From the NCBI GenBank assembly GCA_051883555.1, contig JBJETY010000028.1:1-58123 (forward strand): a stretch of DNA of 58,123 nt, given 5' to 3'. The notes under the pieces are model-generated. The model searched no databases and was not told the DNA's origin. It saw only the letters and a program-made list of their open reading frames with translations. The number at the start of each line of letters is the position of its first letter. Within the stretch, counting starts at the first letter, position 1. Source of the DNA: Christensenellales bacterium (GTDB lineage Bacteria > Bacillota > Clostridia > Christensenellales > CAG-917). This document shows, in pieces, positions 547 to 34,774 of the stretch. The translations under genes were made by a program, and so were the position numbers.

Positions 547-1521
547 TTACATTTTTAACGAATCGCATAATCTGTCAAACCAGTTAGTATTGACTACGTA
601 TCCGTAATCGGAATACGCATATCCGTTCGAAGCCTCTACCCCTTCAAGCGATACGGAATAAGCACCGGTATCGGCACTCGTCACGGCCGTACCGGCATTT
701 ATACCGGCAGCGTTAACGATAATTAAAGTTGCCACCAGAACGATTACGGCAATATAAACGGCAAGAATAATTTTGCCTTTTACGTTTTTCGTTCTACCCT
801 TAGGCGACTTTGCGCCGGACATTTTCAGTCCGCGTCTAGGAGCTATAGCTCTCGGATTTTGTTCTCTTGTGGACGTATACGACAATCTGTCATACAACAA
901 ATCCATGTTTTCATTTGTATAATCTGAATTCATTTCACGGCGAGCATTTTCAAGGAATCTGTCGCCATTTCTATCGGCAAATCTATCGTCCGCACCGTTA
1001 TATCTGTAATCGGTGTATCCGTTATAGTTCGAAGAAGCATACTCATTGTTGTTTTGCTGTCTTCTAAGGTTCGCAAAAGCAGGGTCCTGACCAAAATAGT
1101 TGATTTCCCTTTCATCTGCGTTTCTTACGTTATTTTCATTTGTATACGGGGCGTTATAGCCGCCGTATCTGCTATCCGTATCCGAGTAACCGGCATTTGA
1201 ATAATTTTCGATATTGTTATATGCAGAAGAATACCTTGTTGCATAATCGTCGTAACCGTTTTCGCGTTCTGCATACTTAGGTTCGGCATACTCTCTGTTA
1301 TAGCGACCGTCGAAGCGTTCCTCCGTTTCATAACGTCTGAAATTGTTATGGTTATCGGCATAACGATTATCTTCGCGATATCCGTTTTGTCTAGGAGCAA
1401 ACTTTTGCTCGAATCTCTGCTCGAAATCGTTATAGCGTGACGGCGTATCGTCATAACTATCACGCATATCTCTTCTTGATTTTGTCTGGACGTCAAGAAC
1501 GTCTTGAATTGTCAATGACAT
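547..1521 (-). CDS. Membrane-anchored protein with long Y/N/D/R-rich low-complexity N-terminus, in the ftsL gene slot
   Basis: AAGGAGGG RBS before ATG at 1521; ~250 aa low-complexity region, one TM helix (IILAVYIAVIVLVATLIIV), ~50 aa tail; directly after rsmH. Confidence 0.75.
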   Translation of the reverse strand: MSLTIQDVLDVQTKSRRDMRDSYDDTPSRYNDFEQRFEQKFAPRQNGYREDNRYADNHNNFRRYETEERFDGRYNREYAEPKYAERENGYDDYATRYSSAYNNIENYSNAGYSDTDSRYGGYNAPYTNENNVRNADEREINYFGQDPAFANLRRQQNNNEYASSNYNGYTDYRYNGADDRFADRNGDRFLENARREMNSDYTNENMDLLYDRLSYTSTREQNPRAIAPRRGLKMSGAKSPKGRTKNVKGKIILAVYIAVIVLVATLIIVNAAGINAGTAVTSADTGAYSVSLEGVEASNGYAYSDYGYVVNTNWFDRLCDSLKM

Positions 1522-1534
1522 ATACACCCTCCTT

Positions 1535-2467
1535 TTAAACTCTTTCGGCTATTCTGAGTTTCGCGCTTTCCGCTCTGGAATTTAAGCTCAATTCTTCGTC
1601 AGACGCCGTAATCGGTTTTTTGTTTAATATTTTTATTTCCTGATGTTTACCGCATACGCATTTAGGTAAACTTTTATCGCAGATACAATCTGTTTCCAAA
1701 TCTTTAAAGCAAGTCTTTACTATTCTGTCTTCGAGCGAATGGAATGATATAATCGCAATTCTTCCGCCTTTTTGCAACTTTTTGGACAAAAACTCTACCG
1801 TGCTATATAATTCGTCGAGTTCGCCGTTGACTTCGATTCTGATTGCCTGAAAAGTTCTTTTTGCGGGATGTCCGTATTTCCATCTGAGTGACGGCGGATA
1901 GCACGCTTCGACGATTTTTGAAAGTTCCGTCGTCGTTCTTATGCTTTCTTTTGCCCTTACCGACGCTATACGCTCTGCAATACGTCTTGCAAATTTATCT
2001 TCTCCGTATTCGCTTATGATTTTTTCTAATTTAGAAACCGAATACTCGTTGACCACGTTGAATGCCGTCAGATATTGGTCCTGGTTCATTCTCATATCTA
2101 ACGGAGCGTCTTTCATATACGAAAAACCACGTTCAGAGTTATCAATCTGATAAGAAGAAACTCCAAGGTCAAGCAAAACTCCGTCAAGATTGTCCACCCC
2201 TGCTTTTTCAAGAATTCTCTCGGCGTTTTTAAAGTCATCGTGGATAAAAGTGATTTTATCTTTAAACTCCGATAACCTTTCGGCCGCAAACATAATTGCT
2301 TCGGCGTCTTTATCTACGCAAATAAGTCTGCCGTTAGTCAATTGCTTTGCTATTTCCAACGAATGGCCGCCACCGCCCAAAGTGCCGTCAAAATAAATGC
2401 CGTTCGGGTTGATATTAAGTCCGTTTATGCACTCGTTCAAAAGAACGGGGGTATGATTAAAGTCCAT
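1535..2467 (-). CDS. rsmH: 16S rRNA m4C1402 methyltransferase RsmH (MraW)
   Basis: HTPVLL, DGTLGGGGHS, DLGVSSYQID, RGFSY, PLDMRM, FQAIRIEVN, ISFHSLEDRIVK, SRAESAKLR. Confidence 0.98.
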   Translation of the reverse strand: MDFNHTPVLLNECINGLNINPNGIYFDGTLGGGGHSLEIAKQLTNGRLICVDKDAEAIMFAAERLSEFKDKITFIHDDFKNAERILEKAGVDNLDGVLLDLGVSSYQIDNSERGFSYMKDAPLDMRMNQDQYLTAFNVVNEYSVSKLEKIISEYGEDKFARRIAERIASVRAKESIRTTTELSKIVEACYPPSLRWKYGHPAKRTFQAIRIEVNGELDELYSTVEFLSKKLQKGGRIAIISFHSLEDRIVKTCFKDLETDCICDKSLPKCVCGKHQEIKILNKKPITASDEELSLNSRAESAKLRIAERV

Positions 2468-2903
2468 ATTTCTTCAATTTTTCAATCATTGCGCTGAGAT
2501 TGCTCTTTTCAAGAACGGAGAATTTACGTTCCCAAGTTTCAGCCGCCCAAATTTCGATATAATCGAACTTACCTACAAAAACGATGTCCTTGTTTATCTG
2601 AGCCATCTTTTTTAAATCGGAAGGCAACGTTATTCTGCCCTGAGCGTCCTCTTTAAGCTCGCTGGTATGGCTAAGCAAAAAAGTCGTCGGGTCTTGACCG
2701 TCGCTGTCGAATATAGATATATTCGCACGGCTTTTTTCCATCATTTCTTTTGCTCTTTGCTCAGGTAAAAGTAAAATACAGTCATTGTCTGCCGGAACGA
2801 AATACAAAGGACCCTGCAAACTGTCTTTATACTTTGCAGGTATTCTAGTCCTGTTTTTTTCATCAATGCTATGACGAATGTATCCCGTTAATATCCCTGA
2901 CAT
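2457..2903 (-). CDS. mraZ: Division/cell wall cluster transcriptional repressor MraZ
   Basis: Two DxxxR motifs (IDEKNR, EDAQGRI), IEIWA, 148 aa, overlaps rsmH start. Confidence 0.95.
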   Translation of the reverse strand: MSGILTGYIRHSIDEKNRTRIPAKYKDSLQGPLYFVPADNDCILLLPEQRAKEMMEKSRANISIFDSDGQDPTTFLLSHTSELKEDAQGRITLPSDLKKMAQINKDIVFVGKFDYIEIWAAETWERKFSVLEKSNLSAMIEKLKKYGL

Positions 2904-2932
2904 ATTTCACCTTTTGATACCTTAGTGACATT

Positions 2933-2965
2933 ATACTATCACGAATTTTGACCACCGTCAACCAC
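2933..2965 (-). promoter_or_regulatory. SigA-type mraZ promoter with MraZ-box-like GTGGT repeats
   Basis: TTGACG (2961-2956), 17 bp, TG-n-TAGTAT (2938-2933); GTGGT twice, 10 bp apart (2965-2961, 2955-2951), resembling the GTGG repeats bound by MraZ. Confidence 0.75.
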
Positions 2966-3039
2966 TTTTTAAAAAAATCGCTATATCCCTTTATCCATAC
3001 GGTTTATAGCAATTCGAAAAATTTTTTTTAAAATTTTTT

Positions 3040-3090
3040 TAGTTTATTTGTAAATTATATTAGTTTACATATATACTTTATTAGTTTACA
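3040..3090. repeat. Three TAGTTTA motifs at 21-bp spacing
   Basis: Starts at 3040, 3061, 3082; the last two extend to TAGTTTACA. Confidence 0.6.
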
Positions 3091-3483
3091 AGTATATTAA
3101 ATTTAAATCTACGCTAAATTATTAAAAAAAATTAAGCTTTTTCTATTAAATCGGAAGCAGAAAACAAAACGAACAAGCATAAAACGACTAGTTTTTCAAT
3201 TTAGTGGTCAAAATCTTAACATGGTTTTGAATATAAAACGATTATGCCGATTTTTAAACTTTTATTAAATTTAAAAGCATTTTATTAAATTTAAAATACA
3301 TTCTGAATACGTTCTGAAATTTTCTTTTGTAATTTTTTGTAAAAACGCGAGAAAATGCGTATTATACCGAAAAGATTTATCGTAAAACCATTTAACGTAT
3401 AAGCATATCCAAGCCGTTTAGCCGTTTTTTATAAGCAACTTAACCACCGTTATAAAACGTATAAAACAAATAGGAATTTAAAA

Positions 3484-3650
3484 ACATATTTAAGAGATTT
3501 TAAAGCATATTTAATATCATAAATGATATTTAAAATTATATTTGAATCCATATTTGAATTCACAATTTAATTCATATTTTAATTCATTTTTTAATTCATA
3601 TTTTAATTCATATTTAAAAATATATTTAAAGTGTATTTTAAAACATTTTT
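3484..3650. repeat. 12-bp-period minisatellite (CATATTTTAATT-like)
   Basis: catatttgaatt/cacaatttaatt/catattttaatt/cattttttaatt/catattttaatt/catatttaaaaa with decayed flanks. Confidence 0.8.
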
Positions 3651-3692
3651 TATAGCGAACGTATAACTTACAAATTTAAGGCAAAATTTTGA

Positions 3693-3720
3693 AACCTTTG
3701 CAATCAAACTACATATATTA
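3693..3720 (+). promoter_or_regulatory. SigK-like (late mother-cell) promoter
   Basis: AC (3694-3695), 16 bp, CATATATTA (3712-3720) matches AC-N16/17-CATANNNTA; AGGAGG RBS follows. Confidence 0.55.
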
Positions 3721-3742
3721 AATTAGAACAGGAGGTACGTTT

Positions 3743-4399
3743 ATGTCATTTTGCAATTGTAATGGCGATAAAATTCCGGGGGCAATAAGCGGAAATCCGC
3801 TTTATGGCCTTTGCGAAAAAGCATGTATACAGGTCAACAGAGTGTTTGATGCCTGTATGACCCAATCGTCAAACGAGCAAGTTACGCTCGCCTTATCAAA
3901 TCTTACACCGTCCGACCCTACCACTCCGCTTACCTTTGTCAGCGCCGTATCCAGCTCGACAAAAGGAACTTTAAGCGGCGTTACGGTTACTCCTTTAACC
4001 GACAGACCGGGTTACTCTCGAGTACAAGCAACGGTAACGATTCCTATCGAAGTTATCTATGCCGACGCAAACGGAACGGCAGGCAAAGCTACGTCAAGCT
4101 ATACGACGTCGTTGGACGTTGTTTTATGCGTACCGGACAATTCGGTTATACCTGTAACGATAGACAGCACCGTAAATTTTGTCGCACTGCACGGCACCTA
4201 TCAGGAATCGAATGCGTTTGTAGTTGCGGCGTGTTCTACGGTAATACTTAAAGTCGTTGCGGAAGTTGAACTCTTAGTCCCGACATACGGATACCCGCAA
4301 ATTCCGACTTGCCAACCTTATTCGGAAGAAGTATGTTCGGGAGTTTTCGATTTACCACTTTTCCCGAGCGGCGGAAATTTCACAACCAACAATAGCTGA
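3743..4399 (+). CDS. Cys-rich putative spore coat/exosporium protein
   Basis: N-terminal CEKACIQVNRVFDAC resembles the CIxVxKVYD motif of coat-type proteins; beta-rich; SigK-like promoter; strong RBS. Confidence 0.55.
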   Translation: MSFCNCNGDKIPGAISGNPLYGLCEKACIQVNRVFDACMTQSSNEQVTLALSNLTPSDPTTPLTFVSAVSSSTKGTLSGVTVTPLTDRPGYSRVQATVTIPIEVIYADANGTAGKATSSYTTSLDVVLCVPDNSVIPVTIDSTVNFVALHGTYQESNAFVVAACSTVILKVVAEVELLVPTYGYPQIPTCQPYSEEVCSGVFDLPLFPSGGNFTTNNS

Positions 4400-4447
4400 C
4401 GGCAGTACCTACTGTCAAAAAAAGGAGCATATTGCACCTTTTGCCAC

Positions 4448-4480
4448 AAAAAGAGAAACTCATTATGGGTTTCTCTTTTT
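4448..4480 (+). terminator. Intrinsic terminator
   Basis: AAAAAGAGAAACTCA-TTA-TGGGTTTCTCTTTTT. Confidence 0.85.
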
Positions 4481-4531
4481 TAACCATTTTTTAAAACTTT
4501 TTTACCCTTTTCAAACATCATTTATATTGAG

Positions 4532-4560
4532 TTGCCTGAAAAAACAAATTATGTTAATAT
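4532..4560 (+). promoter_or_regulatory. SigA-type promoter, predicted leaderless start
   Basis: TTGCCT, 17 bp, TG-n-TAATAT, then 6 nt to ATG 4567; no SD. Confidence 0.6.
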
Positions 4561-4566
4561 ATTTTT

Positions 4567-5259
4567 ATGAAAATTTTTGCAATAAGCGATTTACATTTAT
4601 CCACCGCCGTAGAAAAGCCAATGGACGTATTCGGCACCGAATGGACGGGACATTTCGATAAAATTAAAACAGACTGGAATAATAAAGTCGCCGACGAAGA
4701 CCTTGTATTGTTGGGCGGAGACACTTCATGGGGGTCAAATCTTGACGAGGCTGAGGCAGACCTTATTCAACTTAAAGAACTAAAAGGCAGAAAAATTCTA
4801 TTGAAAGGGAATCACGATTATTGGTGGAATTCTTTGAGCAAAATTTCATCGAGATTCCCCTACCTTGATTTTTTACAAAATAACTGCTTTGCTTTCGACG
4901 ATTTTATAATTTGCGGCACTCGCGGTTGGGGAATCATAACCGAAAATTCTCCGGATGAAGACAAGAAAATCTTTGAGCGTGAATTGCAAAGACTTGAATT
5001 ATCTATAAAATCCGCACTCGAAAAAAGAAAAAACAATCAAAAATTAATAGCGCTATTGCACTTTCCGCCTTTTGACGCAGATTTTAAAGACACAAGGGTT
5101 ACAAACCTTATTGAGAGCTACGGAATTGACAAAGTTTTATACGGTCATCTGCACGGAAAAGACGTTCGCATTAAACCGTCTTTTGTCAAAAACGGAACTG
5201 AATATATCCTTACTTCATGCGACCTTATAGATTTTAAACTTGTTGAGGTGAAATTATGA
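4567..5259 (+). CDS. Calcineurin-like metallophosphoesterase
   Basis: DLH, GGD, GNHD, LH, GHLH metal-binding motifs. Confidence 0.9.
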   Translation: MKIFAISDLHLSTAVEKPMDVFGTEWTGHFDKIKTDWNNKVADEDLVLLGGDTSWGSNLDEAEADLIQLKELKGRKILLKGNHDYWWNSLSKISSRFPYLDFLQNNCFAFDDFIICGTRGWGIITENSPDEDKKIFERELQRLELSIKSALEKRKNNQKLIALLHFPPFDADFKDTRVTNLIESYGIDKVLYGHLHGKDVRIKPSFVKNGTEYILTSCDLIDFKLVEVKL

Positions 5260-5840
5260 TTAAACAAGCTAAATTCATATTGTCGGTTGCCGACAAAAAG
5301 AATATACCGGACTACAACGTACCGGAAATTGCAATAGCGGGAAAATCTAACGTCGGTAAATCAAGTTTAATAAATTATTTAACAAACCAGAAAAAACTTG
5401 CAAAAACGTCTTCCGAACCGGGACGAACAAGACTTTTAAATTATTTTCAAATTAACAACGGCGAATATTATTTTGTAGATTTGCCGGGCTACGGTTTTGC
5501 AAAAGTTTCTAAAACGGAGAAAGCGAAATGGGGCGACCTGATTGAAACCTATCTGTCCGCTTCGCCGAATCTGAAAAACGTATTCGTATTGCTCGATATA
5601 CGACACGAACCCACGCAAGACGACCTTACCATGATTGACTATCTATACAAAACAAGCACCCCGTTTACGTTGATAGCGACAAAGGCCGATAAGCTAAGCA
5701 AACAACAAACAAGAAAAGCGCTTATGACGATTTCAAGCGTAACAGGCGTCGGCGTCGACAATATAATCGTCACTTCGGTTCAGGCACGCGTCGGAAAAGA
5801 TGAAATTGAAAAGCGAATCGACCAGATACTATCAAACTGA
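5256..5840 (+). CDS. engB: Ribosome biogenesis GTPase YsxC/EngB
   Basis: GKSNVGKSSLIN, TSSEPGRT, DLPGYG, TKADK; ATGA overlap with upstream gene. Confidence 0.96.
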   Translation: MIKQAKFILSVADKKNIPDYNVPEIAIAGKSNVGKSSLINYLTNQKKLAKTSSEPGRTRLLNYFQINNGEYYFVDLPGYGFAKVSKTEKAKWGDLIETYLSASPNLKNVFVLLDIRHEPTQDDLTMIDYLYKTSTPFTLIATKADKLSKQQTRKALMTISSVTGVGVDNIIVTSVQARVGKDEIEKRIDQILSN

Positions 5841-6150
5841 CTTTAAATTTGCACAATTAAAAATCATAAACATTTTTATACAAACAGTTTATGCCATAGC
5901 AATAAAAACTTATAAAGCCGCCTTAAAATCAGAAATTCAGGATATTGCATTTCTATGAGTTATTGATTTCTATGAGGGCGGTTTTTTAAATTTTAAATAC
6001 AAAATTCTCAATCTTATAATTGCGGCTTAAATTATTTATTAATGTATAAAATTTATTGGAACTATCAATTTATAATATTATAATTTTTGAAATGATGTAA
6101 ATTTAAAACATATAAATTTGAATATATAAATTTTAGTTGAAAATTTAAAA

Positions 6151-6240
6151 TAGAATTAATTTTGATTAATAATTTAAATTTTAGAATTAATTTTGATTAA
6201 TAATTTAAATTTTAGAATTAATTTTTATTATTAATTTAAA
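6151..6240. repeat. ~31-bp tandem repeat x3 in an extremely AT-rich spacer
   Basis: TAGAATTAATTTT(T)GATTAATAATTTAAATT(T) at 6151, 6182, 6213 (third degenerate). Confidence 0.85.
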
Positions 6241-6583
6241 TTTACAAATTAAACGTTTAAATATAGAATTAAATTTTTATTATTTTTTAAACTGTTAAAC
6301 TTAGAAAATACTAATTTTTAAGATTACTAAAATTATAATCAATAAATTTATAAATTATTTAATACATTGATAGATTAAATAGACCAAATAGATTAATTAA
6401 TTAAATGAATTAATAAGATTAATTAATTAAATTAATTAAATAAATTAATTAAAATAATTTATTCAATTTATCATTCTAAATTTAAATTACCTATAATTTA
6501 AATTATAAAACATACTTAATATTGCATACTTAATAAAAAATATTTAAATATAAAATATTTGAATTTAAAACGTATTATAAAAA

Positions 6584-6609
6584 TAAAAGGACGGATAACC
6601 GTCCTTTTA
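6584..6609. terminator. Bidirectional terminator downstream of lon
   Basis: TAAAAGGACGG-ATAA-CCGTCCTTTTA. Confidence 0.85.
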
Positions 6610-6685
6610 GCTTTTAAAATTATTTAACTTACACTATTATGCGATTTTAAGACTTTAAACGTAATAACAAATTTTAAAATTTATT

Positions 6686-8992
6686 TCACATATCCGATGA
6701 TATCGCTATATCAAACACCTGATTTACGTTGCTTACGAAGTCAACCTTTACAGAATCCAAAATACATTGCGGAATTTCTTCTATATCCTTTCGGTTTTCT
6801 TCAGGAACTATAACTTCCAATACGTTTGCTCTGTGCGATGCAAGAAGCTTTTCTTTAAGTCCGCCGATAGGAAGCACTCTGCCGCGTAAGGTTATTTCGC
6901 CCGTCATTGATATATCTGCACGAACTTTTTTACCCGTCAAAGCCGAATAAATTGCAGTTGCAAGCGTTATACCGGCAGACGGTCCGTCTTTTGGAGTTGC
7001 TCCTTCAGGCAAATGAACGTGAATATCTTTTGTCGTAAATATCGACTTATCTATGCCGAGCCTTTCTGCATTAGCTTTTAAATACGTCAATGCAGCACGG
7101 CCCGATTCTTTCAATACGTCACCCAACGAGCCTGTCAGAATAAGTTCGCCCTTTCCCTCCATAACGGAAACTTCGATATTTAGCAACGTTCCGCCATAAG
7201 CAGTCCAGGCAAGTCCGGTTGCCGTTCCCACTTCGTCGGCAGGCAATTTTTTATCCTTCACGGTTTTCGGAATTCCTAAAAATTCTTTCAGGTTTTCTTT
7301 TGTTACAAAAACTTTGCTATCTTTGCCTTCAACTATTTTACGAGCCGCTCTGCGCATTATCTGAGCAATTTCTTTTTCAAGTTGACGAACGCCCGCTTCA
7401 TGAGTGTATAAAGAAATTACGTCTTCAACGACTCCCTCTTCGATTTCGACCTGTTCAGACGACAAACCGCAGTTCTCAAGTTGTTTTCTGATAAGATGCC
7501 TTTTGGCGATTTCCGCTTTTTCAATAGGCGTATATCCGCTCATTTCTATAACTTCCATTCTATCCAAAAGCGGTGCCGGAATGCTCTCCATTGAATTTGC
7601 AGTAGTGATAAAAATTACGTCTTTTAGATTAAACGGAATTTCAAGATAGTTATCACGGAAAGTATCGTTCATTTCCGGGTCAAGAACTTCAAGAAGCGCA
7701 GCGGACGGATCTCCGCGATAATCTTTTGCAAGCTTGTCTATTTCGTCAAGCAAAAATACGGGATTCATCGTTCCGCTCTGTTTTATCGTGCTTATAATTC
7801 TACCAGGCATGGCGCCGATATAAGTTTTGCGGTGTCCTCTGATTTCTGCTTCATCGTGAACGCCGCCAAGACTCATTCTGACGTATGCTCTGTCCAGACT
7901 GTCGGCAATCGACCTAACGATTGTAGTTTTACCGACGCCCGGAGGACCGACAAAACATAAAATCGGTTCTCTATGATTCTTACTCATTGCATGCACGGCT
8001 AAAAATTCAAGTATTCTGTCTTTGATTTTATCCAAACCGAAATGGTCACGGTCTAAAATAGATTTAGCCTTAATTAAATCCGAACTGTCCTCGGTGTAAA
8101 TTCCCCACGGTAAATCGAGAACAAAATCAAGATAGTTTCTGATTAAATTAAAATCCGCCGAACTTGGTTGCATCCTTGCCGATTTTTCCAAATCCTTTTG
8201 CAATTTTAGAATATACTCTTCGTCTATAGGCAGATTATTAATTTTGTTTTTATAATCTTCAAAGTCATCGTCACCGCCAAGCTCTTTTTGAATAACGTTC
8301 ATTTTTTCACGAAGATAAGTTTCTTTCTGAGCTTTTTCAAAAGAATTTTTAACCTTCAAAGTTATTCGCCTGTCGATTTTTGCGATTTCAATATCGCGAT
8401 TAATTGTAACCAAAAGATTTTCAAGCATAATCTGCAAACTTGGTTCGCTAATCTGTTTTAACGCCTCTTCATACGGCAGATATGCGTTTACAGCGTTTAC
8501 CAAATCAAGTTTTACACATTTATCCTTGTCGATATCTAAAACAACGTCGGCTAAAAAAGTATCCTGAACGCTTTCTTTATCATTTAAAAATTCAAGCAAT
8601 TTATTGTAAAGAGCGTCGGTTTCGACGCCGCTCAAATCTTTTTCAATAAAATCTTCCACTTCTGCTTCATCGTACGACTCGCCGCGAATTACGTCCGCAA
8701 CGGTTACTCGTCTGATTCCGGCAACGTACAAATTGTAAATTCCGTTTTCTTCGACTGATTCACAAATTGTAGCTACAACGCCTACGCCGTGATAAATAGG
8801 AGTCTGCCCCGCTTTCATATCATAGTTATATTGCGGAACAAGCAAAACGTTTAACCCGTTAGATATAACGTGTTTTGCAACGGCAATAGACTTCTTTCTC
8901 ACAAGCGAAAGTTTAGTAAATTGTCCCGGAAAGATAACCATCCTGCGAAGCGGCAGGATGGGAAAAATTTGTTTTGAATTCTGATTCATCAT
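6686..8992 (-). CDS. lon: ATP-dependent Lon protease
   Basis: Walker A GPPGVGKT, LLDEIDK, catalytic DGPSAG and PIGGLKEK. Confidence 0.97.
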   Translation of the reverse strand: MMNQNSKQIFPILPLRRMVIFPGQFTKLSLVRKKSIAVAKHVISNGLNVLLVPQYNYDMKAGQTPIYHGVGVVATICESVEENGIYNLYVAGIRRVTVADVIRGESYDEAEVEDFIEKDLSGVETDALYNKLLEFLNDKESVQDTFLADVVLDIDKDKCVKLDLVNAVNAYLPYEEALKQISEPSLQIMLENLLVTINRDIEIAKIDRRITLKVKNSFEKAQKETYLREKMNVIQKELGGDDDFEDYKNKINNLPIDEEYILKLQKDLEKSARMQPSSADFNLIRNYLDFVLDLPWGIYTEDSSDLIKAKSILDRDHFGLDKIKDRILEFLAVHAMSKNHREPILCFVGPPGVGKTTIVRSIADSLDRAYVRMSLGGVHDEAEIRGHRKTYIGAMPGRIISTIKQSGTMNPVFLLDEIDKLAKDYRGDPSAALLEVLDPEMNDTFRDNYLEIPFNLKDVIFITTANSMESIPAPLLDRMEVIEMSGYTPIEKAEIAKRHLIRKQLENCGLSSEQVEIEEGVVEDVISLYTHEAGVRQLEKEIAQIMRRAARKIVEGKDSKVFVTKENLKEFLGIPKTVKDKKLPADEVGTATGLAWTAYGGTLLNIEVSVMEGKGELILTGSLGDVLKESGRAALTYLKANAERLGIDKSIFTTKDIHVHLPEGATPKDGPSAGITLATAIYSALTGKKVRADISMTGEITLRGRVLPIGGLKEKLLASHRANVLEVIVPEENRKDIEEIPQCILDSVKVDFVSNVNQVFDIAISSDM

Positions 8993-8999
8993 TACCTCA

Positions 9000-10220
9000 T
9001 TATGCCGTTCTTCTGCGAATTTCAGGGTCTGCCTGTTTCTTGATTACGGCATCGTTTATAACAACTGCTTCAATGGATTTATCCGACGGAATTTCGTACA
9101 TTAAATCGAGCAAAGCGTCCTCAAGAATTGCTCTTAAACCGCGCGCGCCCGTATTCAACTCCATTGCCTTATGAGCTACCGCCTTTAATGCAGAGTCTTC
9201 AAATTCCAAAGCAACGTTATCCATCTTAAACTGAGATTGATATTGCTTTGTCAATGCATTTTTAGGCTCCGACAAAATTTTGACCAATGCGTTTTCGTCT
9301 AAGGCATTGAGACCGACGACAACGGGAATTCTTCCGACAAACTCGGGAATCAATCCAAACTTGATAAGGTCGATTGGCTGAAGTTCCGAAATGAGCTTGT
9401 CATAATCGTAATCGTTTGTTCCTTTAACCGCCGAGCCAAAACCAAGTTTTGAGCTGTCCTTACGAGTATCGACGATTTTATCCAAATCAACGAACGCGCC
9501 TCCGCAAATAAACAAAATGTTTGTCGTATCGATTTGATAACATTCCTGATTAGGATGTTTTCTCCCTCCCTGAGGCGGAACGGAAGCAACTGTTCCTTCA
9601 ATTATTTTGAGCAACGCCTGTTGAACGCCTTCGCCCGAAACGTCACGGGTTATAGATACGTTCTCGCTCTTCCTTGCGATTTTATCGATTTCATCGATAT
9701 AAATAATGCCCTTTTGAGCCCTTTCGATATCGCCGTCGGCAGCCTGAATAAGTTTTAACAAAATATTTTCGACGTCCTCGCCAACGTAACCAGCTTCGGT
9801 TAAAGTCGTCGCGTCGGCAACGGCAAAAGGCACGTTAAGAATCTGCGCCAACGTTTTGGCAAGCAAAGTCTTTCCCGAACCTGTAGGCCCAATAAGCAAT
9901 ACGTTGCTTTTTTCAAGAACGATACCGTCTTTAGGTTTGGAAGCGATACGCTTATAGTGATTATAAACTGCTACGCTAAGAACCTTTTTGGCTGCGTCCT
10001 GCCCGACAATATATTCGTCAAGTTTTTCATTGATTTCTTTCGGCGTACAAAGCGTAATTTCATCGGACATTTTTGCCATTGGAGTCTGCTTATAAATGTC
10101 AAGGCAAGTCTGAATACATTCGTTGCATATATAAAGGCCGTTCGGACCTGCAACTATCTTTTCGACTTCCTTTTCGTCTTTACCGCAAAAAGAACAATGT
10201 AAAGTTTTGATTTCGTCCAT
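9000..10220 (-). CDS. clpX: ATP-dependent Clp protease ATP-binding subunit ClpX
   Basis: C4 zinc finger CSFC...[30 protein letters not shown] loop. Confidence 0.98.
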
Positions 10221-10829
10221 TTATCCCTTCACCTCTTGATTTCTGGCATAATAAATTTTATCGACAAGACCATAATCTCTTGCTTCTTCAGCAGTCATAA
10301 AGTTATCGCGGTCGGTATCCTTCGCGATTTGTTCGAGAGGCTTACCTGTATTTTCCGATAAAATTTTGTTAAGTCTGTCTCTGGTGCGTAAAATCTGTTC
10401 GGCATGGATTGCAATATCGCTTGCCTGACCGCTTGCTCCGCCCAAAGGTTGATGAATCATTACCTCACAGTTTGGCAACGCATAACGTTTTCCTTTTGTA
10501 CCCGAAGAAAGCAAAAACGCACCCATCGAAGCGGCAAGTCCGATACAAATCGTCGAAACGTCGCATTTAATATAGTTCATAGTATCGTAAATAGCCATAC
10601 CGGCAGTTACGCTACCACCGGGACTATTAATATAGATACTAATATCTTTAGTAGGGTCTTTACCTTCGAGATATATAAGTTCGGCAACGATGGTATTCGC
10701 CATAGCGTCGTCAATTTCGCCAGACAGAAAAATAATTCTGTCGTCCAAAAGTCTTGAATATATATCGTATGAACGTTCGCCACGATTAGTTTGCTCTACT
10801 ACATATGGTACTAAATAATCTTTAATCAT
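10221..10829 (-). CDS. clpP: ATP-dependent Clp protease proteolytic subunit
   Basis: [38 protein letters not shown]. Confidence 0.98.
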
Positions 10830-10936: not shown

Positions 10937-12268
10937 TTATGCTTTATCTGTTTCAGCCTTTTTTTCTTTAGTAGCCGCTTCTTTAACTAAAAGATTTTCC
11001 TTTTTAAGCATATCCAACAATTTTTCGGTAAGTATCTGCTTTGCGATATAATCGAGCTGACCTTCTTTAAGGTTCAATTTGAATTTTTCAACGTCCATGT
11101 TAGATTGCTTTGCATACTCGCTGACTTTATTTTCAAGTTCTTTTGCGGTATGTTTAATTTTTTCCGCTTTGATGATTGCTTCCATAACAAGTCTGACTCT
11201 TATAGCTTTTTCAGCTTGCGGAGTATAATCTTTCTTGATATCCTCAACGGTAATATTCATATATTTAAGATAATCTTCGAATTTAAGTCCCTGATAACGG
11301 AGTCTTAACGAAAACTCTTCAATCATATCCTCGACTTCGGCGTCAAGCATTGCTTGCGGAATATCGATTTTTGAATTCTTAACGATTTTTTCGATAATAT
11401 CGTTTTCAAAATCGCGTTCGGCTTTTTCTTCCGCTCTTTCTTTGAGTTTCTTTTCTATGCTCTTGCGATATTCGTCAACGGTATTAAATTCAGAAATATC
11501 TTTAACGAATTCATCGTCAAGCTTTGGCAATTCTTTTGTTTTTACGCCGTTAATTTTGCAAGCAAATTCAGCGTCTTTGCCTTTAAGATTTTCTGCATGA
11601 TAATCTTCAGGGAATTTGACTTTGACGATTTTGTCTTCGCCCTTTTTAGCTCCGACGAGTTGGTCTTCAAAACCCGGAATAAAGCTTCCGCTACCGAGTT
11701 CGAGGTCGTAATTGTCCATGCTACCGCCTTCGAATTCCACACCGTCAACGCTGCCTTTGAAATCGATATTTACTATATCGTGCATTTTTGCAGCTTCTTC
11801 CGTATCGACGATACGAGCTTGCTTATTTCTTTCGGCGTCGATTTCCGAATCGACCTGTGCCTTTGTAACTTTGTCTACCTTTTTAGCGATATTAAGTCCT
11901 TTATATTCGCCGAGTTTAACCTCAGGTTTAACCGTAATTTTAAGAGTAAACGTAACTTTACCATCGTCTTCGAAATCGAATTTTTCAACTTCCGGACGAG
12001 CGACAACTTCAACGTTCTTTTCGTCGGCAAGGAATTTTTCGTATCCTTCCGGAATAATTATATCCAATGCGTCTTCATAAAAAACGCCTTTTCCGTAAAG
12101 TCCTTCAATGACTTTTCTAGGAGCTTTGCCCTTTCTGAAACCGCCGATATTAAATTTTCCCTTAACTTTTTGATAAGCTTTTTCGCAAGCCGCATCAAAT
12201 TCTGTTGCATCAGCCGTAAAACTGACCTTAATCTCGCTTTTAGCGGATTTGTCAATAGTGTAATTCAT
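10937..12268 (-). CDS. tig: Trigger factor
   Basis: GFRKGKAP ribosome-binding motif, FKBP domain FIPGFEDQLVG; GGAGG RBS before ATG 12268. Confidence 0.97.
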   Translation of the reverse strand: MNYTIDKSAKSEIKVSFTADATEFDAACEKAYQKVKGKFNIGGFRKGKAPRKVIEGLYGKGVFYEDALDIIIPEGYEKFLADEKNVEVVARPEVEKFDFEDDGKVTFTLKITVKPEVKLGEYKGLNIAKKVDKVTKAQVDSEIDAERNKQARIVDTEEAAKMHDIVNIDFKGSVDGVEFEGGSMDNYDLELGSGSFIPGFEDQLVGAKKGEDKIVKVKFPEDYHAENLKGKDAEFACKINGVKTKELPKLDDEFVKDISEFNTVDEYRKSIEKKLKERAEEKAERDFENDIIEKIVKNSKIDIPQAMLDAEVEDMIEEFSLRLRYQGLKFEDYLKYMNITVEDIKKDYTPQAEKAIRVRLVMEAIIKAEKIKHTAKELENKVSEYAKQSNMDVEKFKLNLKEGQLDYIAKQILTEKLLDMLKKENLLVKEAATKEKKAETDKA

Positions 12269-32966: not shown

Positions 32967-33233
32967 GCCGTGCTAGACGGGGAGCTAGCGGTGCCCTGTA
33001 AACCGCAATCCGCTACAGCGGTGTTGAATGTCGATTGAGGTGCAAGCTATGGGAGGCTGCACCGTGCAAGGGGTGTTGATAGCAAGGTCTTGTGCAACGT
33101 TATGCTGTGAACCGTGTCAGAGCTTGACCGCAGCAGCACTAAGCAGATTTTAGCGTGTGCCACAAGGAAGCTTTGAAGGAGCTACCTACACGGTTACCGC
33201 TTCGGTAGTTGGTATCGAGAGAGGCTGCACGGT
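32967..33233 (+). ncRNA. ffs: Large (Bacillus-type, Alu-containing) signal recognition particle RNA
   Basis: 5' GCCGTGCTAGACGGGGAGCTAGCGGTGCCCTGTAAACCGCAATCCGCT matches the B. subtilis scRNA Alu domain; helix 8 TGAACCGTGTCAG...AGCAGCA; 3' GCACGGT pairs with 5' GCCGTGC; own promoter and terminator. Confidence 0.93.
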
Positions 33234-33269
33234 AAAACAAAAGGCATCTTATCGGATGCCTTTTGTTTT
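33234..33269 (+). terminator. Intrinsic terminator of the SRP RNA
   Basis: AAAACAAAAGGCATC-TTATCG-GATGCCTTTTGTTTT. Confidence 0.88.
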
Positions 33270-33668
33270 GTGTTTTTTTGTTATAACAACTACTCTTCGT
33301 TTTGCGTTTTACGCCGACTCTTCTTTTTGCATTTTACAACTTCTCTTCGTTTTGCTTTTCATAAACACTATTTTGTCATAGAGTCGATTTACGTTTCGTT
33401 TCCCGTCATAAAACAACTGCACATTTTATTTTTTGCTTTTGCGTCTACTCTGCGTTGCGTTTTTATATTTTACAACAACCGCCGATTTTTTATATCATAA
33501 AACCACCGCTTGTCCGTATTTAGCATAAAATATCCACTGTTTGTTTGGTTTCATATTATTTGTTCTGAATTTTGCGTTTTATTTAAACTACCGCGCACAA
33601 TAAAGCGTTACTTTTTTGCAATTAGACCGCTTATTCGGTACACTTTTTATAGCGTAACAAGCTTAAAT

Positions 33669-33998
33669 TTAATTTGATTTTTTAATATTCTTTTGAGTAT
33701 CTAATATCCCTTGTATATAGCTTTTAGCAAGTTTTTTGTTCCCCTCATCCAACTGGTCGTATAGTTCTTGTATCTCTGTTTTAGGAATATATGAATTTTC
33801 TAACAAACTATCCGACGTTCTTCCTAAAATATAATCTGTTGTAACGTTAAAAAAATCGGCAAGTTTACAAAGCATTTCGGGTGTTGGTTTGTGTGTGTTT
33901 GTTTCATAGCCGGAATACGTTGCATAAGAAATTCCTAGTTTTTCCGCTACGTCAATTTGCTTTATTTTTTTTGATTGTCTGATTTCTTTAAGTCTCAT
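33669..33998 (-). CDS. XRE-family (HTH_3) repressor, ImmR/cI-like, predicted leaderless
   Basis: LKEIRQSKKIKQIDVAEKLGISYATYSGYETNTHKPTPEMLCKLADFFNVTTDYILG; no S24 peptidase domain; ATG 33998 lies 6 nt after a -10. Confidence 0.88.
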   Translation of the reverse strand: MRLKEIRQSKKIKQIDVAEKLGISYATYSGYETNTHKPTPEMLCKLADFFNVTTDYILGRTSDSLLENSYIPKTEIQELYDQLDEGNKKLAKSYIQGILDTQKNIKKSN

Positions 33999-34004
33999 AT
34001 TTCG

Positions 34005-34106
34005 ATTATTAATTTTTTTTGGCAATTTTTCAAGATTTTCTAAATTTTCTATTGACTTTTAGAGTTATTCTAAGTATATTATGATTGTTTAGAGAATCTC
34101 TAAACA
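34005..34106. promoter_or_regulatory. Divergent promoters with three operators at 30-bp spacing
   Basis: TTCAAGATTTTCTAA (34029), TTAGAGTTATTCTAA (34059), TTAGAGAATCTCTAA (34089, inside perfect palindrome 34086-34106); rightward TTGACT-17-TATATT (34052-34080); leftward TTGAAA-17-AATAAT (34033-34005). Confidence 0.78.
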
Positions 34107-34137
34107 CAACGTAACAAAATAAGGAGAAAAAAAAAGC

Positions 34138-34560
34138 ATGGCAAACGAAAAACAAACTTACAAATTACTTTTGAAAACAAACCGCAGTTTAATTAAGTAC
34201 ATTTTACTTTCAATTATCACCTTAGGTATCTATTCAATCTACACTTATTATACCATTGGCGAAGACATTAATATGATTGCTAGCGGATACGACGGTAAAA
34301 AGACAATGAATTACGCGTTATTGTTTTTCCTCATTGGTCCTATTACGTTCGGTATCGGAATTTTGGTATGGATGCACAGAATCTGCAAACGCATAGGTTG
34401 TGAACTCGAACGCCGTCAGATACCATACAGCTTCGGCGCAGGCAGTTACTGGGGATGGCACGTACTCGGCGTTGCAATTATTGTCGGACCTTCAGTATTT
34501 ATTCACAAATTATGCAAAGCAATGAACTTACTTTGCAATGACTATAATGTAAACGACTAA
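34138..34560 (+). CDS. DUF4234-like membrane protein
   Basis: RSLIKYILLSIITLGIYSIY N-terminal motif, 3 hydrophobic segments, AAGGAG RBS. Confidence 0.7.
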   Translation: MANEKQTYKLLLKTNRSLIKYILLSIITLGIYSIYTYYTIGEDINMIASGYDGKKTMNYALLFFLIGPITFGIGILVWMHRICKRIGCELERRQIPYSFGAGSYWGWHVLGVAIIVGPSVFIHKLCKAMNLLCNDYNVND

Positions 34561-34606
34561 TTTTGCAAACGACTAATTCAAGAAATTAGATTTAACCTAA
34601 ACGTTG

Positions 34607-34638
34607 ATAAAGCACTCATAAAGAGTGCTTTATTTTTT
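34607..34638 (+). terminator. Intrinsic terminator
   Basis: ATAAAGCACTC-ATAAA-GAGTGCTTTAT followed by T run. Confidence 0.8.
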
Positions 34639-34774
34639 GCTTTTCTTAATCATGCTATCCATAGACTTAAAAATTTTGTTTTAGCCATAGATAAAAATCA
34701 CAAAATTAAATCTTAAGGTTAAAAATATATGACAATAGCATAACGCCGATTCACAGAATTAAGGAGAATATTTG

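Follow-up and report, generated by a model that had tools for sequence, protein, structure and literature searches.

The closest described relatives of the locus reported here are phage switches built on a small repressor. RstR of the CTXphi system (RstR/ig-2/PrstA, Vibrio cholerae) is a two-domain XRE repressor of about 110 amino acids (aa) that carries no self-cleaving domain, is encoded divergently from the phage early promoter and acts at several operators. PrstA is repressed by a dimer-of-dimers of RstR (PMC8402870), with LexA lending support and the antirepressor RstC opposing it (PMC13250501), release being brought about by antirepressor or co-repressor and not by self-cleavage. AimC of the arbitrium phages (phi106; PDB 9sf2 and 9iaq) combines a helix-turn-helix (HTH) domain with a C-terminal helical oligomerisation domain and is inactivated by the small protein AimX, which blocks AimC oligomerisation and DNA binding (bioRxiv 10.1101/2025.11.23.689978). 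Here we describe a comparable arrangement on contig JBJETY010000028.1 of a Christensenellales bacterium, in a stretch of 58,123 nt referred to as the window, in which the gene of a 109-aa XRE repressor and the gene of a DUF4234 membrane protein diverge from a common control region close to ffs, the gene of the signal recognition particle (SRP) RNA. The pairs DicA-dicB of Qin and RacR-ydaST of Rac in Escherichia coli illustrate that a phage repressor can outlive its phage and keep an adjacent divergent gene silent. Our results make it probable that the locus in the window arose when repressor and operators of a small temperate inovirus-like phage were captured from its immunity region and joined to the gene of a cellular membrane protein, and that the resulting unit still works. 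The elements concerned are the following:

33669..33998, minus strand: repressor gene, encoding an XRE protein of 109 aa whose five-helix HTH (residues 1-58) is joined by a linker to a C-terminal domain of two helices (residues 73-108), from Pfam, NCBIfam and AlphaFold2 (AF2)
34005..34033, minus strand: leftward repressor promoter, TTGAAA (34033..34028)-17-AATAAT (34010..34005), from a consensus scan
34029..34043, no strand: weak operator O3, TTCAAgatttTCTAA, with two mismatches, overlapping the -35 of the repressor promoter
34052..34080, plus strand: rightward promoter (PR), TTGACT-17-TATATT (-35 at 34052-34057, -10 at 34075-34080), upstream of the DUF4234 gene, from a consensus scan
34059..34073, no strand: operator O2, perfect, occupying the -35/-10 spacer of the rightward promoter
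34086..34106, no strand: operator O1, perfect core at 34089-34103, inside a 21-nt palindrome at the predicted transcription start
34121..34126, plus strand: Shine-Dalgarno sequence AAGGAG, 11 nt before the DUF4234 ATG
34138..34560, plus strand: gene of the DUF4234 membrane protein, 140 aa, six helices in three pairs, from Pfam and AF2
33678..34112, no strand: segment homologous to the immunity region of a prophage (L037/L035, see below), blastn, 74.5% nucleotide identity over 439 nt

A pattern search with the operator consensus TTAGA-N5-TCTAA revealed two perfect matches in the window, TTAGAGTTATTCTAA at 34059-34073 and TTAGAGAATCTCTAA at 34089-34103, against an expectation of 0.13 in shuffled windows, of which 0/100 contained two or more. 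The third site, TTCAAGATTTTCTAA at 34029-34043, deviates from the consensus at two positions and stands exactly 30 bp from the middle site, for which the probability is about 1.4e-3 when either flanking position is allowed (7e-4 per position). An earlier note on this DNA had described three related 15-bp operators 30 bp apart, and the starts at 34029, 34059 and 34089 indeed follow exact 30-bp steps between the divergent promoters, comprising two perfect copies and one with two mismatches. The placement that it gave for each site was likewise reproduced: O2 fills the spacer of TTGACT-17-TATATT, 34086-34106 is a perfect 21-nt palindrome that begins at the predicted +1 of the rightward promoter (about 34087), and the leftward -35 (TTGAAA, 34033..34028) is overlapped by the weakest site. 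As RNA, the O1 palindrome is predicted to fold into a 5' hairpin of -8.2 kcal/mol (z = -3.1). The rest of the 1.49-Mb assembly holds three more perfect sites, all single, with about 3.3 expected by chance; they adjoin a ThiF-family gene, the leader of glycyl-tRNA synthetase and the spacer between formyl-tetrahydrofolate cyclo-ligase and alanine racemase.

On the leftward side, the A of the repressor ATG (33998) is the seventh base after the -10 and leaves no room for a Shine-Dalgarno sequence, so that a leaderless repressor mRNA, which the earlier note had proposed, is a fair prediction. The distance from -10 to ATG and the missing Shine-Dalgarno sequence are kept in L036, L034 and L035, so the geometry is common to four homologous loci. 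A TTG start at 34025 would give a protein of 118 aa; the conserved ATG at 33998 (MRLKEIRQ..., 109 aa) was taken as the true start instead.

Close relatives of the repressor proved to be few in homology searches. A contig of the same species (L036, 92.7% DNA identity) shows the same arrangement as the window, a further lineage (L034) carries the same cassette at the same place with an 86% identical repressor and ends within the DUF4234 start, and an integrated element of the same genus (L035/L037) encodes a repressor of 78-79% identity. In the prophage L035, the sites TTAGAgaaacTCTAA, TTAGAaaaacTCTAA and the two-mismatch TTAAAttttcTCAAA lie at 2894, 2924 and 2954, again in exact 30-bp steps; the middle one occupies the spacer of a TTGACA-17-TATATT promoter, the distal one stands at +1 and the weak one adjoins the repressor promoter, whose consensus -10 TATAAT is followed by the repressor ATG after seven bases. 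A degenerate third site in the same phase is likewise present in L036, L034 and L035. Alignment of the four control regions revealed invariant half-sites around a variable centre of 5 nt (GTTAT, GAATC, GAAAC, AAAAC), which fits recognition by a protein, whereas covariation of an RNA stem would give the opposite. The predicted recognition helix GISYATYSGYETNTHKP is the same in 4/4 proteins (window, L036, L034 and L035), and relatives with other helices (L024, 44% identity; L072, 57%) stand without these sites and next to other repeats instead, in L072 three copies of its own repeat spaced 33 and 37 bp apart. Comparison of these four loci thus supports the assumption of the earlier note that the sites are the operators of the adjacent XRE protein.

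The motif or look-alikes of it were also found elsewhere. In a metagenome-assembled genome (MAG) of Akkermansia (L057, 1323-1367), paired TTAGAAT-N-ATTCTAA boxes stand 30 bp apart in the spacer between nrdR and rubrerythrin, one of them inside a TTGACT/TATACT promoter; they resemble PerR/Fur operators and mimic the motif studied here, as do several other hits of the collection scans. A 58-kb viral contig (L071, 12206-12370; IMGVR_UViG_3300045988_107606) contains a tandem 30-bp unit, CTGGGTTTCATTAGATAATTTCTAAAATCG, with a TTAGA-N5-TCTAA palindrome in each unit. The XRE protein itself had no confirmed match in viral contigs.

The homology between window and prophage extends over the repressor gene and the whole control region and breaks off about 25 nt short of the DUF4234 ATG. 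In L037, a 59-aa open reading frame (ORF) comes after the repressor, then a tyrosine integrase (phrog_1, 1.3e-27), and about a dozen co-directional genes face the repressor, including several small membrane proteins and a rolling-circle Rep of the G2P type (PF23343, REP_ORF2-G2P; phrog_3419, 1.8e-16). The match to a Zot-like ATPase is weak, and no coat or assembly proteins were recognised with confidence; the first rightward gene encodes a protein of 110 aa that matches neither an HTH nor any PHROG. In gene content, the L037 element looks like an integrated inovirus-type phage. This candidate Gram-positive inovirus-like prophage covers about 10 kb (619-10823) of a 22.6-kb contig (Logan SRR25571644) and has an untranslated leader of about 250 nt after PR. 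Beyond its integrase lies a partial tRNA-like 3' end (11215-11271). Integration of the phage at ffs was considered and dropped, as ARAGORN and Rfam found no intact tRNA or ffs on the prophage locus.

GlmS of the contig that hosts the prophage is 98-99% identical to that of genomes G003 and G004 and 85% identical to that of the window's genome, from which we concluded that the prophage lives in the same genus. It is absent from G003 and therefore a strain-variable element, and its Rep was not found in 41 related genomes including that of the window, which thus has no resident homoimmune prophage. A repressor of 78-79% identity, accompanied by the same operators and promoters and standing next to an integrase in a same-genus prophage, strongly favours the origin from temperate-phage immunity that the earlier note had suggested.

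As to the repressor protein, Pfam HTH_3 (PF01381) matched residues 12-66 of the 118-aa reading with 61.7 bits against a cut-off of 23, which places it among the XRE / Cro-C1 proteins. The NCBIfam profile of the RstR family (NF041951, E 1.4e-19) aligned over the full length, residues 2-103 of 109 falling on profile positions 6-104 of 108 with the C-terminal domain included, and homologues of the repressor behaved in the same way on this profile (63-70 bits). The AF2 model (predicted local distance difference test, pLDDT, 86.9; linker disordered) ends in two helices, and a Peptidase_S24 domain was not found in the 109-aa protein by Pfam. The closest full-length structures retrieved with Foldseek were the phi106 repressor/AimX complex (9sf2) and 9iaq (E about 1e-3, 23-25% identity); the HTH alone had ImmR as its nearest structural neighbour. 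Further profile matches were weak for DicA (E 5e-4) and full-length for the PADLOC capH profile (E 2.6e-9). In the alignment, C-terminal domains are shared among relatives bearing different HTH domains, a mosaic pattern typical of phage immunity groups. With dN/dS of 0.05 relative to L036 and 0.10 relative to L034, at dS of up to 0.6-0.7, the repressor is, by its substitution pattern, under purifying selection. A solitary homologue of 48% identity (L023, 1501-1821, genome G018) contains an in-frame TAG and lies between rubrerythrin and signal-peptidase genes; it is a decayed orphan copy.

Set against the described systems, the unit most resembles CTXphi, with which it shares a small two-domain repressor devoid of a self-cleaving domain, its divergence from a phage early promoter with several operators and a parental element that appears to be a small integrated phage with a Rep and a putative Zot-like protein. 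It differs from CTXphi in its profile score (70.4 against 80 bits), in its host, a Gram-positive gut Clostridia lineage, and in the parental phage, which has its own tyrosine integrase at a tRNA-like site and not XerCD/dif; moreover, no LexA box is evident here, and the early promoter drives a cellular DUF4234 gene rather than rep. With AimC it has in common the HTH joined to a C-terminal helical domain, but identity is only 23-25% and no AimR, AimP, AimX or AimL genes are present here. CapH of the cyclic oligonucleotide-based antiphage signalling (CBASS) operons shows the same two-domain plan along with the full-length profile match, but the window contains neither a CapP (ImmA-like) protease nor CBASS genes, so that the locus is not a CapH/CapP-regulated defence operon. 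In DicA and RacR the controlled genes are phage genes within a large relic, whereas here the relic comes to only about 435 bp and its target encodes a conserved cellular membrane protein.

The likeness to lambda cI with OR1-OR3 consists in three operators between divergent promoters (graded here by sequence only), strong sites placed to block the 'lytic' promoter, a weak site over the repressor promoter and a predicted leaderless mRNA. Unlike lambda, the locus has no recognisable Cro and no S24 domain, its first rightward gene encodes DUF4234, evidence for positive autoregulation was not found and the operator spacing is 30 bp compared with 23-24 bp. The terms lambda-like and bistable, used in the earlier note, are consequently not supported, since a Cro is recognisable neither here nor in the parental prophage, a RecA-cleavable S24 domain is absent and the nearest relatives are of the RstR and AimC type. 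We conclude that the locus is a captured RstR/AimC-type single-repressor module, a known kind of event and not a new kind of switch.

The surroundings of the cassette contain the following further features:

32968-33232: SRP RNA (ffs), large type, from Rfam
33232-33271: terminator-like hairpin after ffs, from a hairpin scan
33270..34769, no strand: stretch without counterpart in the nearest relative G005 (blastn against L011), composed of the old ffs-kinase spacer (to about 33660) and the inserted cassette
34586..34600, no strand: extra one-mismatch site TTAGATTTAACCTAA, 3' of the DUF4234 stop and ahead of the terminator
34606..34634, plus strand: intrinsic terminator-like hairpin with T run, predicted to end the DUF4234 transcript, from a hairpin scan

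In G005, an AT-rich gap of 437 bp separates ffs with its terminator from the kinase gene, and the cassette is absent; in the window, about 1.5 kb occupies the same place and homology resumes at 34770. The flanks of L034 are 92.9% identical to G005 up to the insertion point, its spacer being G005-like to a point about 130 nt short of the kinase start, where the cassette follows. The cassette is present in three close lineages (window, L036 and L034) and was not found in any other genome of the genus that was searched. By this genome comparison, it is an insertion in the ffs-kinase spacer; no convincing terminal direct or inverted repeats were seen at its borders. Neighbouring genes in the window are ffs, an ABC permease, a PdxK-like kinase and a racemase-like gene. 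ORF annotation and Pfam detected no S24 domain, integrase, Cro or ImmA near the cassette, which leaves the unit an orphan as the earlier note had stated, and its further remark that the unit has a terminator of its own fits the terminator-like hairpins after ffs and after DUF4234.

The T-rich stretch of 400 bp between ffs and the repressor was considered as a decayed integrase and rejected, as it corresponds to the old ffs-kinase spacer (33274-33660). This spacer carries 25-nt repeats, TTTTGC.TTTTAC..ACTCTTCG, is about 50 nt (two units) longer than in L036 and diverges much faster than its flanks. Within the genus, the SRP RNA gene alone has been inverted (loci L012-L017): it points away from the kinase gene in G001-G004, G011 and G013, but the two run in the same direction in the window, G005, L034 and L036. 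At the other end of the cassette, a near-exact 15-nt direct repeat (TGTAAACGACTAATT / TGCAAACGACTAATT, 34548-34578) spans the DUF4234 stop codon, 5' of the 34586-34600 site. The latter is identical in L036, but the surrounding stretch is 99% identical, so that this carries little information.

The rightward gene belongs to Pfam DUF4234 (PF14018), with 74.8 bits against a cut-off of 25.3. Its AF2 model is well defined (pLDDT 90.1), and comparison of the fold with the PDB gave nothing below E = 4, while a PDB sequence search returned no match. The subfamily comprises 332 homologues, with 56-76% identity among the 120 matches listed, and is patchily distributed, occurring in 19/401 genomes of the order and 0/5 other genomes of the genus. 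Homologues occur in varied chromosomal settings: between an ABC exporter and azlCD, upstream of an amino-acid ABC importer, or on their own. None was found in 50,697 phage records or in PHROGs, and the DUF4234 profile had a single match in 2.9 million viral contigs. From this distribution, we regard the subfamily as a patchy cellular gene. Superinfection exclusion and envelope stress, put forward in the earlier note, are conjectural roles of the membrane protein. The single viral match (L078, 1906-3390; IMGVR_UViG_2718218444_000001) lies at the end of a high-GC actinobacterial prophage, where an XRE protein (174 aa), an ImmA-like HEXXH protein (141 aa) and a DUF4234 protein (184 aa, 58% identical) are encoded in the same direction beside an integrase. 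Searches for toxin and PADLOC matches to DUF4234 were negative, and the one paper found to mention the domain gives it only as a list entry. On the question of the earlier note whether XRE, operators and DUF4234 recur together, the XRE gene with its operators recurs in the prophage, where the homology ends short of DUF4234. Of 25 other DUF4234 loci, 0/25 pair the gene with a divergent XRE; two of the 25 have an XRE-like ORF less than 1.5 kb away (one convergent, one co-directional).

For the mode of action, we propose that dimers of the 109-aa XRE protein bind the 15-bp inverted repeats TTAGA-N5-TCTAA. O1 and O2, the strong sites at the +1 and in the spacer of PR, would be filled cooperatively, occluding PR and keeping DUF4234 off; the 30-bp spacing, about three helical turns, together with the C-terminal helical domain would permit the dimer-of-dimers known from RstR. 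O3 would be occupied at high repressor levels alone, resulting in negative autoregulation of the leaderless repressor promoter. Since neither Cro nor a self-cleaving domain is present, the unit is expected to be a default-OFF gate rather than a bistable switch, and its opening would need an outside factor, most likely a small antirepressor, as RstC for RstR or AimX for AimC, or titration of the repressor. Since the recognition helix and operators also occur in a phage of the genus, the early promoter of an incoming homoimmune phage should be shut down by the orphan repressor too. This would confer immunity without a prophage and may explain the retention of the unit.

Several observations weigh against the reading as a captured repressor-operator unit. 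The score on the RstR profile, 70.4 bits, does not reach the curated cut-off of 80. Sites with two mismatches are not enriched in the window (41 observed, 53.6 expected), so that the third site by itself is at chance level. Conservation of the spacing, on which the earlier note had made its proposal depend, is only partial: the 30-bp phase is kept in L036 and in the prophage L035, but L034 has 15 extra bases and an O1-O2 spacing of 45 bp, which suggests that strict phasing is not essential. The half-site is also not unique to this helix, because a prophage in a Bacillota MAG (L045, 4401-5056; JAUZPZ010000002.1), which encodes an integrase and a 115-aa repressor, distantly RstR-like but with another helix, carries two identical TTAGAATTTTTCTAA sites 30 bp apart, one of them in the spacer of a TTGACA/TATACT promoter. 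Lastly, no antirepressor candidate was found in the window.

Other explanations assign a different role to DUF4234. The locus might be an abortive-infection or addiction-type module, in which DUF4234 is a harmful membrane effector set free by loss of the cassette or by an infecting related phage that inactivates or titrates the repressor. Such a design would account for the position of DUF4234 under a tightly blocked 'lytic' promoter, separate from the repressor transcript; in its favour, the genus also has a circulating homoimmune phage, the actinobacterial prophage L078 places XRE, an ImmA-like gene and DUF4234 beside an integrase, and cryptic-prophage repressors restraining toxic genes are familiar from RacR/YdaS-YdaT and DicA/DicB. 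Yet close DUF4234 homologues stand alone or in housekeeping-type contexts and 0/25 loci have a divergent XRE, which makes an intrinsic toxicity of DUF4234 doubtful; in addition, DUF4234 has no PADLOC or PHROGs match and the two genes are divergent, unlike operonic type II toxin-antitoxin pairs, for which a co-transcribed operon and a known toxin family are expected and were not found. We therefore consider a module of this type unlikely. Slightly less likely again is an orphan immunity region that serves as a phage sensor, where the antirepressor or the operator copies of an infecting inovirus-like phage would strip the repressor from its sites, and the induced DUF4234 would block assembly or entry of filamentous phage or sacrifice the cell; if true, this would give DUF4234 its first function and constitute a defence built from a decoy switch. 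A neutral, decaying relic of a deleted prophage, with DUF4234 expressed by read-through or from another promoter, would agree with the loss of every other phage gene and with a flanking spacer that evolves fast and changes its repeat copies. It is nevertheless very unlikely, since the repressor maintains a dN/dS of 0.05-0.10 over three lineages at dS of up to 0.6-0.7, both perfect operators and both promoters are intact while the adjoining non-coding DNA diverges, and the truly pseudogenised relative L023 with its in-frame TAG shows what decay looks like.

The remaining alternatives concern the origin of the module and the nature of the sites. An ordinary chromosomal XRE regulator without phage ancestry, from which the prophage took the module, is conceivable insofar as the direction of transfer is not provable from one prophage and XRE regulators divergent from their target gene are very common; the occurrence of family members next to the integrase of no fewer than three elements (L037, L024 and L045), the mosaic swapping of C-terminal domains between HTH domains and the lack of the cassette in all other searched genomes of the genus render this highly improbable. 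Least probable of all, the palindromes could be RNA hairpins or host Fur/PerR-type 7-1-7 boxes (TTAGAAT-N-ATTCTAA) and not XRE operators. The folding of O1 into a 5' hairpin of -8.2 kcal/mol speaks for the former, and scans of our collection with the two-site pattern, which mostly returned Fur/PerR-like boxes, for instance before rubrerythrin in the Akkermansia MAG, speak for the latter. However, O2 and O3 lie outside both predicted transcripts, and the stem is invariant with a variable 'loop', which argues against the mere hairpin that the earlier note had named as grounds for giving up its proposal. Likewise, the centres GTTAT, GAATC, GAAAC and AAAAC lack the AT-N-AT core of a 7-1-7 box, the three other perfect sites of the genome are single, in chance number and beside unrelated genes, and the sites are co-inherited with the repressor gene in a phage.

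We thus maintain that a phage-derived repressor-operator unit, captured and fused to DUF4234, is the probable explanation of the locus. It would represent a clean, datable regulatory exaptation, in which about 435 bp of phage immunity DNA, comprising a repressor, three operators and two promoters, gate a host membrane gene while the parental phage still circulates in the same genus. The locus offers a defined operator/repressor pair for uncultured gut Clostridia and a handle on the immunity of Gram-positive inovirus-like prophages, and it may provide an inducible context for studying the uncharacterised, strongly conserved DUF4234 family.

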